DNA of 64,000 nt. It comes from a phage. The position numbers and the translations under genes were made by a program. The stretch lies in NCBI GenBank assembly GCA_016658885.1, contig GCA_016658885.1_4807.1. One strand, 5' to 3'. The notes under the pieces were generated by a model. It made no database searches. It had not been told where the DNA came from and worked only from the letters and a program-made list of their open reading frames with translations. Positions 3,776 to 20,465 of this stretch are shown here, in pieces (within the stretch, counting starts at the first letter, position 1; each line of letters opens with the position of its first letter).

Positions 3776-4090
3776 GTGTAGGATAATATCGGTGGGGATT
3801 ATTCTAGATGCGTGTAATTTCGCATGCGTACTATTTTCGGGCGAAGGGTCGGCATATTTATCGTTTTAGTTCGGAACGAAGGGAAAGTTTTGCGCCTTTA
3901 TAAAACAACGACTTACGCGACCCTCCCTAACGGTCCGATATAGGTGTCTATATAAAACAAGGACTTACGCGATGTTTTCCATTTAACGTAATACCCGTTA
4001 TGCGAACTAAGGCGCATCTCGACGAAGATTATGCGACGACGAAGGGAAGGATAAAGGAGTTTTCGCGGAGAAGCGCATCGAGATAGGGAC

Positions 4091-4116
4091 GAAGAAAAGC
4101 CGCGACTAAGCGCGGC
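4091..4116 (-). terminator. rho-independent terminator downstream of 4137..4427
   Basis: On minus strand GCCGCGCTTAGTCGCGGC hairpin followed by TTTTCTTC. Confidence 0.55.
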
Positions 4117-4136
4117 CTATTAGTAACGGAAGGGTA

Positions 4137-4427
4137 TTATAAGGAGACGATTTTAAAGAAAGAGTAACGGCCTTCGCCTTCGGATAGCGCGAGATATTCG
4201 CCGCCGAACTCCGTAGCAAAATAAACCTTACCTTCGATAGTAACGCGGAAGGTAGTAATATCTTCCTCTTCGAGTTCCGTAAATTCGCTAAAATCGATAG
4301 GACTATGAAGCTCTTCGATAGTTGCATCTACGTTAAAGAGATAAACGTTTTTAAGTTTTTCGCCAAATACGTTAGAGTTTTCGGAAGTTTCGACGCGAGC
4401 GGAACGGATAGCGGCTAAAGTAATCAT
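4137..4427 (-). CDS. small acidic protein (96 aa), island paralogue candidate
   Basis: ORF track; start context CTAGGAGAATATTATG shared with three neighbouring island genes; Asp/Glu-rich. Confidence 0.5.
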   Translation of the reverse strand: MITLAAIRSARVETSENSNVFGEKLKNVYLFNVDATIEELHSPIDFSEFTELEEEDITTFRVTIEGKVYFATEFGGEYLALSEGEGRYSFFKIVSL

Positions 4428-4451
4428 AATATTCTCCTAGTTAGTCGGGAG

Positions 4452-4472
4452 GGTAGCGACCTATTCGCTACC
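4452..4472 (-). promoter_or_regulatory. 5' leader RNA hairpin GGUAGCGA-AUAGG-UCGCUACC
   Basis: Perfect 8-bp stem and 5-nt loop, 24 nt upstream of the ATG at 4427; covarying copy at 5017..5037. Confidence 0.5.
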
Positions 4473-4494
4473 TCATCCCCTCTCGATATAAAAC

Positions 4495-4525
4495 ATTATA
4501 GTCTTAGTGTACGAAGAAGTAAAGC
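4495..4525 (-). promoter_or_regulatory. sigma70-like promoter for 4137..4427
   Basis: Minus-strand CTTTACTTCTTCGTACAC...TATAAT; same element repeated at 4894..4923 and 4965..4993. Confidence 0.45.
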
Positions 4526-4534
4526 ACTTTTTCG

Positions 4535-4837
4535 TTATTCTGCGATAAAATATTTATAAGCTTTATCGCCTTCTACGTCGATATACTCGACGATAATTAA
4601 CGCTTCGCCGCGAGGCGTAACCGTCTCGATAAGGGTAACGGCTTCGTCGTCGGTCTTCGCGAAGCGGATGGCGCTACATTCGGCGTACTTCATATCATCG
4701 AAGGAAAGGCCGATGAAGGCGACCGCGCGGACCTTAATGGCGCTAGATTCTAGTTCCGCGTTAACGGCGGCGATAAGAGAGCGAACGGTTAAGCGGTCTT
4801 CGTCGTAAGTAAGGATGGAAGAGATTAAAGTAGTCAT
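4535..4837 (-). CDS. small acidic protein (100 aa), island paralogue candidate
   Basis: ORF track trimmed to ATG at 4837 preceded by GGGAGCTTTATTATG; acidic composition. Confidence 0.5.
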   Translation of the reverse strand: MTTLISSILTYDEDRLTVRSLIAAVNAELESSAIKVRAVAFIGLSFDDMKYAECSAIRFAKTDDEAVTLIETVTPRGEALIIVEYIDVEGDKAYKYFIAE

Positions 4838-6511: not shown

Positions 6512-6985
6512 CTAGTGGCGGGAGAATTGCTCACCTTCTTTGGCCGCCTCTCCAAAATCCTTGTAGAAATCGTCCATAGAACGGCCCATTTTACTATTGC
6601 CGTTTTCATCAATCATCGTGATGCCGTAGATGATATTCAGTTCACGAATAGCATTAAGCTTGGCTGATGCCGCGACTTCTGGATCACGCACAAGCTTGAC
6701 CAAATTGTGAATTGCACCTTTTACGCTCCATAAATCCTTGAGTGGCATTTCTTCCATACGCTTTTTGAAGCGCATTTTGTAGTACGGATTGCGTTGTGCG
6801 CAAAGGATTCGCTGGCCAGTGTAGTTATCCGTTGCAACTTCCATTCCAAATACTAGTGCAAAAGCTGCGCGCATGTCATGGCCCTGAATAACAAGGTCAA
6901 TGAACTCATCGAATAAAGCCTGATTGTGCTCTGCAAATCGCGGGTCTTCAAAGTCTTCAGGCATCGCTACATAATCTTGACTCAT
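6512..6985 (-). CDS. hypothetical protein (about 157 aa)
   Basis: ORF track trimmed to the MSQDY start; no motif recognised. Confidence 0.45.
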   Translation of the reverse strand: MSQDYVAMPEDFEDPRFAEHNQALFDEFIDLVIQGHDMRAAFALVFGMEVATDNYTGQRILCAQRNPYYKMRFKKRMEEMPLKDLWSVKGAIHNLVKLVRDPEVAASAKLNAIRELNIIYGITMIDENGNSKMGRSMDDFYKDFGEAAKEGEQFSRH

Positions 6986-7221
6986 AGTGCAAAATCCCAT
7001 AGTGCAAATTAATAGTGTGAATTATACAATGGATGGACATTATATTCAAGTGCAGATTGATGTTCATTATGGCTATAAACGTACACAAATCATAGTGCTG
7101 AATGGATAACGGACCGTGGTGCGTGGTGTACTGTTTGATACGAATAAAAGAAATCCATCCCTTTCGCCGCTTGCTATGCAAATCAAAGACTTAGCCGCTG
7201 CTGGCTGGTTGAAGCGTATCA

Positions 7222-7590
7222 TGACGTATCATCCGTATTGCCGCAAGTCTTTGTTTTTACTTATATATTACGGATGATACGTTAAATATATAAATTAACA
7301 TAAGTATGAGGATGTAGAAAAAAATTAATTTAAATTAATTCAAAATGGAGTTAATTAATTTTTCAAATTATATATATAACGATGCCCAGTTTTATCCGTA
7401 TCATCCGTAAGATTAATGTACAAGCCAGGCGCGGCAAGGGCTGTACACTGATACGGATAAAAAACCATGACGTATCATGACGTAAGGGTGTACCAATTTG
7501 GAAAGGATGAATCCAGGAACGGCGCGGCCTGTAGCCATGATACGCTTAATTTTTAACCGTATTTTAAGCGTATCAAATGTGTTCAAACAC
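7222..7590. repeat. iteron-like repeat region with AT-rich core (origin-like), copy 1
   Basis: Direct and inverted copies of ACGGATGATACG / CGTATCATCCGTA flanking an AT-rich block at 7310-7380; similar to 60190..60462. Confidence 0.6.
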
Positions 7591-7816
7591 CACGTTTCAC
7601 GACACTAAAATTTCAATCCATAGATATAATCTAACAAACATCACGGACCAATAGACACGACCTATGAAATATATTTCTAAATATTTCCGCACAATCAATA
7701 AATAAAACACAACCTCATAATCATTCCATCGCAAAACACGACCCAAACAACAAAAGGCCGCATAAAGCGACCAATTGCACACATTCCATTCTTCAAAACA
7801 CACAAATCAATGTTCT

Positions 7817-8353
7817 TTATCCGCTGACCTTCCAGTCACCATTCCTTTTATCACGCTTCTTTAACTCCGTTTTAATGACATTATTATCCACAATAACTCC
7901 TAAACGGCGCAATTCACACATGACCTTGTGGCGATATTGTCGAAGCTTTTTGACGTCCATTGTGCTCCTTGAATAAGATAATACCATAAAAATAATATCA
8001 TCATTCATCTTGTAGCGCATACAAGTTTTATAATGCCTTTTGAAAATAGCATTAACGGCATCTGTTTTCAGCAATTCATCCATTAATTCTTGATTCCCTT
8101 CACAGACGTTAATGACCCATTCATCCCTTGATTTTGCCGCTTTCAATCCCCTTAGAGTTAATAACTCATATAATGCCTTTCTGCACTTAGAGCAATCACC
8201 AATTGTCAAACTTGATTCCATTTCTTGAGCATCGGTCAACTCTGTATTGCCTTTGCTGAATTTACCGCACAAGCTGATTTGCTCGCCGTCGTCAAAGTAG
8301 TGGGCAAGTTTTGAGTATCGCGGCTTGCCCCATCCTGCAACGTTACCCATCAC
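7817..8353 (-). CDS. hypothetical early protein (178 aa)
   Basis: ORF track; first gene of packed minus-strand array. Confidence 0.5.
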   Translation of the reverse strand: MMGNVAGWGKPRYSKLAHYFDDGEQISLCGKFSKGNTELTDAQEMESSLTIGDCSKCRKALYELLTLRGLKAAKSRDEWVINVCEGNQELMDELLKTDAVNAIFKRHYKTCMRYKMNDDIIFMVLSYSRSTMDVKKLRQYRHKVMCELRRLGVIVDNNVIKTELKKRDKRNGDWKVSG

Positions 8354-8775
8354 CCCTCCTTAACGACCCGATAAGCAACAATCTTTGCACCAGTCGGGCT
8401 TGTGACTTTATCCCATGTCAAACTATCCGAAGGAACGGCCTCTTTTGATTTATAACCGTTGAGTAATTCAAACTCAACCATCTTCCCAGGCACCGGATTC
8501 TCTCCACCACGCCACACGGTCCACGCTTCATCCTGCTTTTCGCAAGCATCAACATCCACGCCTATAGTGGAAACGACGTCATGTAACTGCTTAACGAGCG
8601 CCGACGCATCACGGACCTGTGAGCGTAATGCAACCAACTCGCGTTGCGCTTCGCTATATTTCTCTTCCAGCGCGGCGTAGTCCTCATATTCAACGTAGCC
8701 GCCTTCATTATCCTTTACAACTTCGCAAGTGCAAGCGTGCTGCGTGCAATAATCAACATCGTAACGTTGTATCAT
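8350..8775 (-). CDS. hypothetical early protein (141 aa) with conserved C-terminal module
   Basis: C-terminus NPVPGKMVEFELLNGYKS...SDSLTWDKV...IVAYRVV is paralogous to the C-terminus of 9924..10430. Confidence 0.5.
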   Translation of the reverse strand: MIQRYDVDYCTQHACTCEVVKDNEGGYVEYEDYAALEEKYSEAQRELVALRSQVRDASALVKQLHDVVSTIGVDVDACEKQDEAWTVWRGGENPVPGKMVEFELLNGYKSKEAVPSDSLTWDKVTSPTGAKIVAYRVVKEG

Positions 8776-9266
8776 TCTAACTTCTCCAAAATTTCAATGG
8801 CAATCTGCGTTTGCTTCTCAAGCGCGAGACGCAACATGTCAATTTGCAAGTCACGATGGGCCAGTTCAGCGGCGATGTCTGACTTGCTGTAAAGTCCTTC
8901 ATGAGTCATGGCATAGATGTGGCGCGTATAATAGCCGCCCTCGTCGAGTTGCTCGATGTCACGTTGCCCGACTGCATATTGGTTATCGGTCGATGGCGCT
9001 TGGTCCTGAATTTTGATTGCTGCCACTTCCTTTAATGAATCGCGTGATGCGGGTCTGTTCTTTTCAAGCATCTTCACTTGGTCGATGCGCTCGCACCAAA
9101 CTGAACCACAGGCTTCATACAACCACTGGCCGCGCCGCTCTTCCCATACAGGTTTTCCCTCATACAACCAAATGCTGCCATTGGAATCGCGCGCAACGAA
9201 TCGCGCACGAGCGTCTATTTCGTATTCTTTACCTTCAAAATTGATGCGCTGCGTTTTGTTAGTCAT
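8772..9266 (-). CDS. hypothetical early protein (164 aa)
   Basis: ORF track; stop/start overlap with neighbours. Confidence 0.5.
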   Translation of the reverse strand: MTNKTQRINFEGKEYEIDARARFVARDSNGSIWLYEGKPVWEERRGQWLYEACGSVWCERIDQVKMLEKNRPASRDSLKEVAAIKIQDQAPSTDNQYAVGQRDIEQLDEGGYYTRHIYAMTHEGLYSKSDIAAELAHRDLQIDMLRLALEKQTQIAIEILEKLE

Positions 9267-9586
9267 TCAAATTTCTCCGTTTCTTTAATACACTGTAATA
9301 CTTCTTCGATGCCAACTTCAACTTGCACATCGCTTTGACGCATCTCATCAATGAAATCATCTTCACAACGTATCGGGTTATGCATCGTTAATATTTCAAA
9401 CACCTCAACGTGACTGACCAGCGGCAAAAGGTGCTTCCTTACTAATTTGATTAAAACGTCGTGCGAGTCCTTGTCTTTTATTTCTGATTCAATATTATTT
9501 TCTTCACAGAAAAGTGACACTGTGTCACCATCCATGAATCCGAACTTAGATGCAAGCGATTGCGCGTGCAAGTGAAGAGTTTTCAT
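9263..9586 (-). CDS. hypothetical early protein (107 aa)
   Basis: ORF track; overlaps neighbours by 4 nt. Confidence 0.45.
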   Translation of the reverse strand: MKTLHLHAQSLASKFGFMDGDTVSLFCEENNIESEIKDKDSHDVLIKLVRKHLLPLVSHVEVFEILTMHNPIRCEDDFIDEMRQSDVQVEVGIEEVLQCIKETEKFE

Positions 9587-9924
9587 TTAACCTTCTCCAA
9601 TTGGAATCTTGTTTCTGGAAAGCCTGCGACAAACATATCACGGCCCTCGACATCACGCTTCACGAACCAACGCATTCCGCTGACTACCGTGAAGACAATT
9701 TGCCTTCCGTCAATAATAAGTCCTTTTGCCTCATAAAGCAAATAGGTCTGACCGACCTTGAAGCTTGACAGTTCTTTGCTTGCGCTGGTGCACTTGAGCC
9801 GCCACTGGGTGAGATTGGATTCGCTCGCCTCGATGTCAACAATCTTACCGCGCAGCGGCGATGTGCGCTGAAGCTCTTTCATTTGCTCGTCGAACGTTAG
9901 CTCACGGCCTTCTTGCTCTTCCAT
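9583..9924 (-). CDS. hypothetical early protein (113 aa)
   Basis: ORF track. Confidence 0.45.
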   Translation of the reverse strand: MEEQEGRELTFDEQMKELQRTSPLRGKIVDIEASESNLTQWRLKCTSASKELSSFKVGQTYLLYEAKGLIIDGRQIVFTVVSGMRWFVKRDVEGRDMFVAGFPETRFQLEKVK

Positions 9925-10430
9925 TATTCCTCCACGACGCGATAAGCGATGATGTCGTCCCCAAAAGGTCTACCAACAATCTCCCATGTCATACTATCCG
10001 AAAGTGCAGGCTTTCTTGATTCATAACCGTCTCGAAGCTTATACATAACCTTCTTGCCTGGTACTGGATTCGAGTCGCTGCCGTCCCATTCAATCCAACC
10101 GTCAACCGTCTTCTTCTCCTTCAAGTGCTCATGCTTCTCACCGATGTGGGCGACAGGTTGACGGCTTCCGTAATAGAATGCCAGGGCGACATCATAGCTT
10201 GGGTGAGTATTCGAAAGACAGATGTCATCACACCAAAGCTCCATGGTGCGCGACTTAAGGGTCATGATATTGATATACCACTCGATGGTGTAGTGGTCGT
10301 TAAGGTTGCCGACGATATAGAAGTTGCGACAAAACACCTTATCGCTATCTGACTTCTCGCGGCGATAGCTTTTGATTGCGCCAGCCTTTACAGCCATTTC
10401 CAGTACTGCTTCGAGTTGTTCTATTTTCAT
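9924..10430 (-). CDS. hypothetical early protein (168 aa) with conserved C-terminal module
   Basis: C-terminus NPVPGKKVMYKLRDGYES...SDSMTWEIV...IIAYRVV paralogous to 8350..8775. Confidence 0.5.
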   Translation of the reverse strand: MKIEQLEAVLEMAVKAGAIKSYRREKSDSDKVFCRNFYIVGNLNDHYTIEWYINIMTLKSRTMELWCDDICLSNTHPSYDVALAFYYGSRQPVAHIGEKHEHLKEKKTVDGWIEWDGSDSNPVPGKKVMYKLRDGYESRKPALSDSMTWEIVGRPFGDDIIAYRVVEE

Positions 10431-10663
10431 TTCTTTGCTCCGAGTTCAATTTGATAGCCGATTGACAATTCATTTTCGCCGATGGTGAATGCATCGACTG
10501 GCTGCGACATCACCGCTTTTAAATAGACCTTCTTGCGTCGCTTCGCCTTGTACAAGCAACGGTCGCCGCTGCGGTTGTAAATATTAAGCCAGGTGCGCTT
10601 ACTAATCTTATACGGCACATGCGGCTTGATGAATAATAAACGGGCCTTAAGATTTGATGTCAT
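10427..10663 (-). CDS. hypothetical protein (78 aa)
   Basis: ORF track. Confidence 0.4.
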   Translation of the reverse strand: MTSNLKARLLFIKPHVPYKISKRTWLNIYNRSGDRCLYKAKRRKKVYLKAVMSQPVDAFTIGENELSIGYQIELGAKK

Positions 10664-10955
10664 AATATTTACCTCCAGCCATATTCTCTTTAATTTCTTT
10701 TAATGCCGCGCGACCTGCTTTTGTCATCACCACGGATGAATAGCGCGTCGGGTCTTTCTCCCCTGGCACCGCCCAATCAACAAGGCCCAACCGGAATAAG
10801 ACAGGGATTGACGGCGCATTGATGTCGTGGAACAGTGATGGCCGCTTTTCATAAGCCTTCTTGCGGTCGCCGCGCAGCATGTATGGCGTTCCATCTTCCA
10901 TTCGGTACAATGTTTGAATTTGCGCTAGGCTTAGTCTCATTGTTGTCTTCTCCAA
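10647..10955 (-). CDS. hypothetical protein (102 aa)
   Basis: ORF track. Confidence 0.4.
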   Translation of the reverse strand: MEKTTMRLSLAQIQTLYRMEDGTPYMLRGDRKKAYEKRPSLFHDINAPSIPVLFRLGLVDWAVPGEKDPTRYSSVVMTKAGRAALKEIKENMAGGKYYDIKS

Positions 10956-11122
10956 ACTGCGTGTAATGTTTTCTGGTCGAACTTGGACAGCGTTTCACGC
11001 TCCGATGCTTTCAGGAAGCGTGTGCCAAAGAACAACATTCCTTGCGGCGTTTTAACGAGCGACACGCCTTTGTTACGGTAAAAGCTTACCAAGGCTGATG
11101 CGTTGTGGACTTCGGTACTCAT
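10937..11122 (-). CDS. hypothetical protein (61 aa)
   Basis: ORF track. Confidence 0.35.
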   Translation of the reverse strand: MSTEVHNASALVSFYRNKGVSLVKTPQGMLFFGTRFLKASERETLSKFDQKTLHAVWRRQQ

Positions 11123-11430
11123 AACTTCCCTCCAAATGTTGCAACACGGATGCCGCGACGCTCGAACGTTAACATCGGGTTAAGGCCGTCAGCGCAAGTG
11201 ATAAACAAATCATCAACGATAAGCTCATATCCGCCAACGTAAAGGATGAACGGGTCATCGCTATTCTTTAAAAGCATGATGGCTGCAATTCCATTTTTGT
11301 TATTGTTAAATCCGTGCACCGTCACTTCACCGACGTTCCTTTCTGTGAACGTTTTAATGGCACCACAGTTCACGGCTTCTTGCAAAGCGTTCAAAACCTT
11401 TTTCTTCATCGCTTCGGTACTCATAATCAA
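11119..11430 (-). CDS. hypothetical protein (103 aa)
   Basis: ORF track. Confidence 0.45.
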   Translation of the reverse strand: MIMSTEAMKKKVLNALQEAVNCGAIKTFTERNVGEVTVHGFNNNKNGIAAIMLLKNSDDPFILYVGGYELIVDDLFITCADGLNPMLTFERRGIRVATFGGKL

Positions 11431-13222: not shown

Positions 13223-13273
13223 AATAACCTCACTTGTTCGCCTTGATGAAAAGAGTATAAGTATTGATAAAAG

Positions 13274-13303
13274 AAAAGGCAAGCATTTAGCTCACCTTTT
13301 TGA
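13274..13303 (-). promoter_or_regulatory. conserved 30-bp intergenic element, copy 2
   Basis: Identical to 11771..11800. Confidence 0.45.
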
Positions 13304-20305: not shown

Positions 20306-20465
20306 CTTTCTTTCCTTTGGTGATCAATACCTGCAGTATAATATTGAGTGATACAAAGTCAACAATATTTACCATTTAGTTCACAATTTCGATTTACTTT
20401 GCTTTATACTATATCTGCAATTATACTATCAGAAAATATTTCCGCACTAACAAAGGTCGCCTGAA
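20306..20465. promoter_or_regulatory. divergent promoter region between minus-strand early and plus-strand replication modules
   Basis: AT-rich 160 bp with several TATAAT/TATACT-like hexamers; strand switch point. Confidence 0.45.

Follow-up and report, generated by a model that had tools for sequence, protein, structure and literature searches.

A shared C-terminal module with a cassette-like hypervariable core in two accessory proteins of a Wifcevirus-type coliphage

DUF551 (PF04448 / IPR007539), known from YfdS and from Ea22 variant 2 of lambdoid prophages, is a small portable domain of phage accessory proteins that sits behind coiled coils (in Ea22 variant 2 and YfdS), helix-turn-helix regulators, and a MazZ-type dATP/dGTP pyrophosphohydrolase (PMC10834534). 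The variants of the lambda Ea22 family, encoded in the exo-xis region, are assembled from parts that each occur in alternative versions, with a C-terminal domain that is exchanged between phages (PMC10834534). Tail fibres, including the T-shaped fibres of Wifcevirus, pair a conserved scaffold with highly variable, horizontally exchanged recognition tips joined at sharp breakpoints (PMC11990801). We describe here a C-terminal module that recalls all three systems and is shared by two small proteins, A and B, encoded in a 64-kb stretch of phage DNA (GenBank assembly GCA_016658885.1, contig GCA_016658885.1_4807.1; the whole stretch is referred to as the window). Our main new result is that within Wifcevirus the core of this module varies as a cassette, with at least nine allele groups at each of the two loci. 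Between 8000 and 11000 the window is 86-92% identical in nucleotide sequence to Wifcevirus, the Escherichia and Shigella myophages that include WFH, CWP003, FEC19, vB_Eco4M-7, and Bas99-101, among others, and on this likeness we assign it to a Wifcevirus-type E. coli myophage. The patchy coverage of these alignments (47-77%) shows the accessory region to be mosaic. All genes of the region are labelled 'hypothetical protein' in annotated relatives, and a search of the literature on Wifcevirus, vB_Eco4M-7, and DUF3310 yielded nothing on genes A and B.

A preliminary description of this stretch, made from its letters, held that the two open reading frames (ORFs) share a C-terminal module of about 55 percent identity behind unrelated N-terminal parts, and alignment now bears this out with a slight correction of the figure. 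BLASTP aligns residues 79-140 of A with residues 106-168 of B (30 of 63 positions identical, or 48%, with 68% positives; E=7e-18), and this is the sole significant alignment between the two; with the count taken from the first conserved Trp onward, identity is 51% (29 of 57 positions), which makes the earlier value slightly high, while the motif string that came with it, W..G..NPVPGK.V...L..GY.S......SDS.TW..V.......I[IV]AYRVV, is correct. The Smith-Waterman score of A against B is 155, against 29.7 +/- 5.0 for 2000 shuffles with a maximum of 54 (z=25), and the N-terminal parts score 18, under their shuffle mean of 25.6. Different synonymous codons are used at 13 of the 29 identical residues, which argues that the likeness has been kept at the protein level by selection and does not stem from a recent duplication of DNA. 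Six-frame profile scans of the window recover exactly two copies of the module, those of A and B, and the next best match has an E value of at least 0.26. A-like amino acid cores occur in the B proteins of the window, OZ035737, and TH35; recent gene conversion from A to B was considered for these and rejected, the cross-locus nucleotide identity (63-70%) being not above background. Paralogy of the B N-terminus with the ORF at 11119..11430 was likewise rejected (E=8.9, unrelated).

Within Wifcevirus, the roughly 31-33 residues between the NPVPGK and DIIAYRVV motifs take the form of discrete and very different alleles, set in a framework that is specific to the locus (WTVW...VVKEG in A, WIEW...VVEE in B). 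Among 46 distinct full-length B proteins, the median pairwise identity is 90% in the N-terminal domain (minimum, 78%) and 30% in the core (minimum, 11%), and the similarity of the cores, which fall into nine allele groups, is essentially uncorrelated with that of the backbones that carry them (Spearman rho 0.08). The 50 A proteins also hold nine core groups, in free combination with two types of coiled coil. At the nucleotide level, the flanks of B are 91-100% identical to the window, the core drops to 33-42% in 10 of 12 relatives, and identity recovers within the last ~30 nucleotides (nt); the A core is 33-73% identical to the window in relatives that carry other alleles, against mostly 91-100% in the conserved stretch upstream. 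The breakpoints lie in the linker or in framework codons, one B core allele is joined to several linker versions, and some cores, such as that of protein P0223, are themselves recombinant, with the join in the central L-R-W motif. Which allele a genome carries at A is independent of the one it carries at B. Taken together, the discrete alleles and the sharp drops in identity show that the Wifcevirus core has been replaced wholesale by recombination and not remodelled by point mutation.

The module is also a place at which whole genes are fused and lost. In two B::A chimeras, protein gp13 of ECML-117 (L012, 3180-3692) and the database protein P0181, the sequence follows B as far as the NPVPG codons and A from there on, and the crossover falls inside a 14-nt string common to both copies, AATCCGGTGCCTGG. 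The three or four genes that usually lie between the modules are missing from ECML-117. Recombination between the two copies has here fused two genes and deleted those between them, which makes the ECML-117 chimera a clean, base-resolved case of a shared domain driving gene fusion and gene loss in phage. P0181 carries the NCBI annotation of a Salmonella enterica protein, which suggests that a Salmonella assembly includes Wifcevirus-like sequence. In Mansfield, AV128, and GCA_041200905.1, B is a 108-amino-acid (aa) protein that lacks the module, which is dispensable to B; the contig of GCA_041200905.1 (L024) encodes this short B (1805-2131) together with an A protein (P0045, 211 aa; 4001-4636) that bears two different modules in tandem. 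Gene A itself is a three-part mosaic in which the N-terminus comes in three or more versions and the coiled coil in two (AALEAKYSEAQRELVALRSQ... and ESLLKLNESLTKEIEQYRER...), all freely combined with module alleles, and residues 1-38 of the window protein match phrog_23083 and phrog_22955. The domain shuffling proposed in the preliminary description is thus strongly supported by a module found by itself, in tandem copies, and attached to many unrelated N-termini, by a B N-terminal domain that occurs without it, and by a chimera whose crossover is mapped.

Beyond Wifcevirus, the segment shared by A and B retrieves a very large protein family. In a profile search over 5.8 billion proteins, 31 short relatives were recovered, many of them stand-alone proteins of 59-75 aa and others of 89-111 aa with unrelated N-termini, and HMMER over 1.84 billion cluster representatives returned 8,961 members at E<=1e-3 and 2,172 at E<=1e-10. 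The top HMMER matches show 2 to 9 matched stretches in tandem, and local mapping of 178 proteins gave 1 to 5 copies. The family signature reads G-W-I-E-W-x-G-G-E-(N/C)-P-V-P-G-K, a beta-strand, R-D-G, a variable stretch with one conserved Trp, and D-I-I-A-Y-R-V-V a few residues from the C-terminus; its framework residues (two N-terminal Trp, G(G), P-V, the central Trp, and (I/V)-A-Y-R-V-V near the C-terminus) are all present in A and B, which match a 33-sequence family profile at 1.7e-24 and 3e-24 and a 330-instance profile at 1.9e-18 and 5.1e-19, respectively. For the module in isolation, AlphaFold2 gives a small domain rich in beta structure, with a predicted local distance difference test (pLDDT) score of 87.6 and a predicted template-modelling (pTM) score of 0.73, and we take it on this confident model to be an autonomously folding domain of ~57-63 residues. 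The model of full-length B has an alpha+beta N-terminal domain at pLDDT 71-85, residues 100-105 below 50, and the module at 81-90. The module is rich in Trp and acidic (median pI 5.1 over 330 instances), an acidity which argues against generic binding of nucleic acid.

A search of PDB sequences with the module gave no match, NCBIfam gave no module match, and Pfam gave nothing relevant for A, B, and their neighbours (E<=1 for A); over 33 and then 147 family members, Pfam returned partner domains only, plus weak matches to Aca2_YdiL and Tudor_Coilin. Structural superposition on SH3-like and Tudor small beta-barrels reached no significant score, and PADLOC, run on A, B, and eight multi-domain relatives, gave no match save one spurious (E=0.009). 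BFVD yields as structural neighbours only uncharacterised proteins of phages, apart from a few that bear the label SaV-like, DUF6378, or dATP/dGTP diphosphohydrolase. The module is the element common to PHROGs 9174, 11995, 16943, 26870, and 13874, all of 'unknown function' (A matches at 1.2e-8 and 1.7e-5, B at 4e-7, and multi-copy proteins down to 3e-50); these, however, are unannotated clusters of whole proteins and not a domain definition, and the position of the module differs from profile to profile. The module is a member of a very large and unnamed family of portable domains that is borne mostly by phages, and its delimitation defines a compact domain of ~9,000 protein clusters outside the coverage of Pfam, NCBIfam, and PDB. 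The accessory genes of phages are for the most part dark matter that lacks annotation.

Partner domains were counted in the 147 top-scoring multi-domain relatives, and the identifiable ones are DUF3310 (SaV; 7-8 proteins), dGTP_diPhyd_N (6), and DUF6378 (5-7), together with DUF550, HD, winged-helix (wHTH), and ribbon-helix-helix (RHH) domains. Sequenced phages with the module fall into four groups, namely Wifcevirus, with more than 50 contigs on record and two copies each in most, rV5-like Vequintavirus, Sinorhizobium phages like phiM7 and phiN3, and phages of Caulobacter and Acidovorax. The genes beside it in unrelated phages are typically those of replication, recombination, or nucleotide metabolism, and no recurrent specific partner gene adjoins the stand-alone homologues in the genomic neighbourhoods examined. 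Wifcevirus also encodes a separate MazG-like pyrophosphatase (Bas99, L014, 30456-31079) that is not fused to the module. Fusions of the module to domains of the nucleoside triphosphate (NTP) pyrophosphohydrolase type are frequent in other phages.

How, then, does the module compare with the systems named at the outset? DUF551 is the closest analogue, with a strikingly similar spectrum of partners. Homology with DUF551 was sought and not detected: no Pfam match at E<=1 was obtained for the sets of 33 and 147 members, and hhalign against the one DUF551 sequence used, E. coli YfdS, gave a probability of 0.1%. The module is best regarded, on these comparisons, as an analogue of DUF551 and not a member. 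Protein A has a layout like that of Ea22, a short variable N-terminus followed by a coiled coil and a swappable C-terminal domain, and like the Ea22 variants it exists with each part in alternative versions and a C-terminal domain that moves between phages. No Ead_Ea22 (PF13935) signature was found in A by Pfam at E<=1, however, where the coiled-coil families listed in the table were the only matches, and the module does not resemble the solved C-terminal domain of Ea22 (8DSX). With tail fibres the module shares the pattern of variation seen in the swapping of receptor-binding domains. It differs in that A and B are small, presumably nonstructural and cytoplasmic proteins encoded in a replication-side array outside the annotated structural genes, and in that the unit replaced is only ~31 residues inside one small domain.

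We favour a reading in which the module is a portable, swappable recognition or adaptor unit of dispensable accessory proteins, with the variable core as its functional surface, and we judge this overall picture about equally likely to be right or wrong. The framework, from the opening W-x2-W-x-GG-x-NPVPGK through the one central Trp to the closing D-I-I-A-Y-R-V-V, would build the fold, and the core would face the target. The likeliest partner would be a polymorphic host protein, for instance a defence or takeover target. The unrelated N-terminal parts would supply an effector function, or oligomerization through the coiled coil of A or through tandem copies would supply multivalency or avidity. 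Intracellular accessory proteins would on this reading behave much like the receptor-binding tips of tail fibres. A more specific version, which we advance tentatively, is that the core is a specificity cassette swapped at framework codons that lets cytoplasmic accessory proteins track polymorphic host targets such as components of defence systems; if this version is true, the module is a cytoplasmic counterpart of tail-fibre tip swapping, and the two loci, the tandem arrays, and the coiled-coil versions give breadth or avidity. Signatures of a conserved framework around a variable core often mark interfaces in conflicts between phage and host, and Wifcevirus offers a natural system for this pattern, with two loci in one genus, at least nine alleles at each, and backbones that are ~90% identical. 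One report indicates that Wifcevirus genomes can be rebuilt synthetically (PMC11074155), which would make allele swaps directly testable.

Several considerations weigh against recognition. The role is drawn solely from the pattern of variability and the domain architecture. The whole accessory region is mosaic, and cassette replacement could reflect general recombination at any conserved motif instead of selection on the core. Among the variants, some that are truncated or frameshifted derive from automated assemblies and may not be genuine. The rV5-like homologue, moreover, is not hypervariable, being 86-100% identical in nucleotide sequence over its full length in 116 phage records, which indicates that hypervariability is a trait of the Wifcevirus loci and rules it out as a general property of the domain. 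Sixteen of these 116 records were deposited as 'Campylobacter phage', yet they are essentially rV5-like coliphage sequences. In FV3 (L019, 2273-2671) the rV5-like protein FV3_00213 (132 aa) contains one module, ending in YDIVAFQE, and its gene lies between two DNA methyltransferase genes and helicase genes.

The preliminary description had suggested a shared interaction partner. On that reading A and B would dock through the conserved framework on one phage protein of replication or nucleotide metabolism, or on a conserved host protein, and variation in the core would be drift that is tolerated. In its favour, conservation of the framework residues is strong, both from A to B and over thousands of proteins, the two genes lie in one array, and replication genes are again found next to the module in unrelated phages. 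The conserved residues, however, are mostly Trp, Gly, Pro, and hydrophobic strand positions, as is typical of a fold core and not of an interface, and the partner would need to be very general to serve phages of E. coli, Sinorhizobium, Caulobacter, and Acidovorax. Core identities of ~30% with sharp breakpoints speak for replacement over drift, B can do without the module, and, the core being hypervariable and the A and B alleles assorting independently, the two proteins probably differ in specificity if the variable surface is what binds. We consider a common partner unlikely. That the module binds nucleotides or other small molecules, as a regulatory or sequestering domain that would make A and B nucleotide-responsive or nucleotide-sponging proteins, is quite unlikely in our estimation. 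Such a role would account for the recurrent fusion to HD domains and to domains of the NTP pyrophosphohydrolase type; DUF3310, DUF6378, dGTP_diPhyd_N, DUF550, or HD is present in about 25 of the 147 top-scoring members with several domains, and DUF3310 and DUF6378 are MazG-superfamily NTP pyrophosphatases. The BFVD neighbours named above, the module gene of phiM7 that adjoins a ligase and a pyrophosphatase, and the conserved aromatic residues, which could stack on bases, also speak for it. A ligand pocket should be conserved, yet half of this domain is replaceable; most members lack an enzymatic partner domain; and no similarity to known nucleotide-sponge or nucleotide-binding folds was found.

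It is very improbable that the framework serves mainly at the level of DNA, as short 'boundary' sequences for the shuffling of accessory genes, with an encoded peptide of little function. The chimera crossover does fall exactly in the 14-nt identity of the two copies, breakpoints do cluster in framework codons, and the cargo between the copies is variable or deleted. The two window copies nevertheless differ synonymously in the framework (AATCCGGTGCCTGGG versus AATCCAGTACCAGGC), the amino acids are conserved over phages of very different hosts, a confident autonomous fold is predicted, and stand-alone and tandem-array proteins exist. Targeted mutagenesis by a diversity-generating retroelement (DGR) would account for a C-terminal variable region bordered by invariant sequence, and DGR variable regions resemble the module in their C-terminal hypervariability within a conserved frame. 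This origin is effectively refuted. No reverse transcriptase is found in the fully annotated relative Bas99, and no template repeat turned up nearby; the alleles are nearly unalignable (33-42% nucleotide identity) and do not differ at adenine-templated sites only; and the same discrete recombinant alleles recur in different backbones.

Genes A and B lie close to the distal end of a leftward array of ~12.6 kb that opens with primase and helicase-primase genes and extends from 20305 down to 7817 (Table 1). The preliminary description called the two proteins early, a label that is an inference from array position because a literature search found no expression or transcript data for any Wifcevirus. 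The promoter-like and terminator-like features derive from a consensus scan in which site counts overall are not above chance; WFH has an annotated terminator at the position equivalent to the hairpin at 7756..7772.

Table 1. Coordinates in the window of genes A and B, their parts, and associated features of the leftward array
Feature	Coordinates	Strand	Basis or remark
Promoter-like site, TTGACT-16-TATACT	20335..20362	-	Upstream of the array-opening primase gene; 10/12 match, consensus match only
Gene B, 168 aa	9924..10430	-	ORF; N-terminal alpha+beta domain, flexible linker, C-terminal module
B N-terminal domain (aa 1-99)	10134..10430	-	Only in Wifcevirus-like phages
B linker (aa 100-111)	10098..10133	-	Variable, low-confidence; residues 100-105 at pLDDT <50
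B module, N-terminal framework WIEWDGSDSNPVPGK (aa 112-126)	10053..10097	-	Conserved; homologous NPVPG codons hold the chimera crossover
B module, hypervariable core KVMYKLRDGYESRKPALSDSMTWEIVGRPFGDD (aa 127-159)	9954..10052	-	Nine allele groups, 46 B proteins
B module, C-terminal framework IIAYRVVEE (aa 160-168)	9927..9953	-	Nucleotide identity back to 75-93%; downstream gene at 91-100%
Three small genes between the modules (113, 107, and 164 aa)	8772..9924	-	ORFs; variable cargo, absent from ECML-117
Gene A, 141 aa	8350..8775	-	ORF; ATGA overlap with upstream gene, GGAG ribosome-binding site
A variable N-terminal segment (aa 1-33)	8677..8775	-	At least three versions among relatives: MIQRYDVDYCTQHAC..., MIQRYDLTYDVATEDF..., MINRFNCIVNKG...
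A probable coiled-coil/oligomerization segment (aa 34-78)	8542..8676	-	Weak matches to Pfam coiled-coil families DivIC, Occludin_ELL, and TPR
A module, N-terminal framework WTVWRGGENPVPGK (aa 85-98)	8482..8523	-	Conserved family-wide and across Wifcevirus alleles
A module, hypervariable core MVEFELLNGYKSKEAVPSDSLTWDKVTSPTGAK (aa 99-131)	8383..8481	-	Nine core allele groups, 50 A proteins
A module, C-terminal framework IVAYRVVKEG (aa 132-141)	8353..8382	-	Family-wide D-I-I-A-Y-R-V-V motif at or near the C-terminus; KEG tail specific to locus A
Terminator-like hairpin	7756..7772	-	3' of the last array gene (7817..8353); consensus scan

The genes of the array follow one another closely: stop and start codons overlap as ATGA, and a GGAG-N8-ATGA junction recurs. 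At 8772-8789, 9263-9280, and 9583-9600, the junctions have a common coding-strand sequence, TTGGAGAAGTTAGAATGA, that comprises the ribosome-binding site and the ATGA overlap, and this shared sequence indicates translational coupling along the array. Midway along, a promoter-like site and a terminator-like hairpin overlap each other (13254-13300, minus strand); transcription of the replication genes may here be set apart from that of the small accessory genes by an internal boundary. Gene content between the two module genes varies across relatives. The minus-strand ORF at 8772..9266 (164 aa) is a two-part mosaic, with residues 4-88 matching phrog_1972 and others and residues 98-163 matching phrog_34533; at its position, relatives have genes of 72-77 aa (Bas99, WFC, and WFH) or 166 aa (RCIP0363).

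An Rfam scan of 6800-10700 gave no match. Directly downstream of the array, at 7000-7816, lies a stretch of ~800 bp that is AT-rich (GC about 0.41) and without a convincing ORF; a 14-nt motif (CGTATCATGACGTA / ACGTATCATCCGTA / TACGGATGATACGT) recurs in it several times, in direct and in inverted orientation, especially at 7215-7484. These copies could be iterons, operators, or a feature of the genome end. In the linear records of several relatives, the equivalent region lies 1-2 kb from the end of the record.

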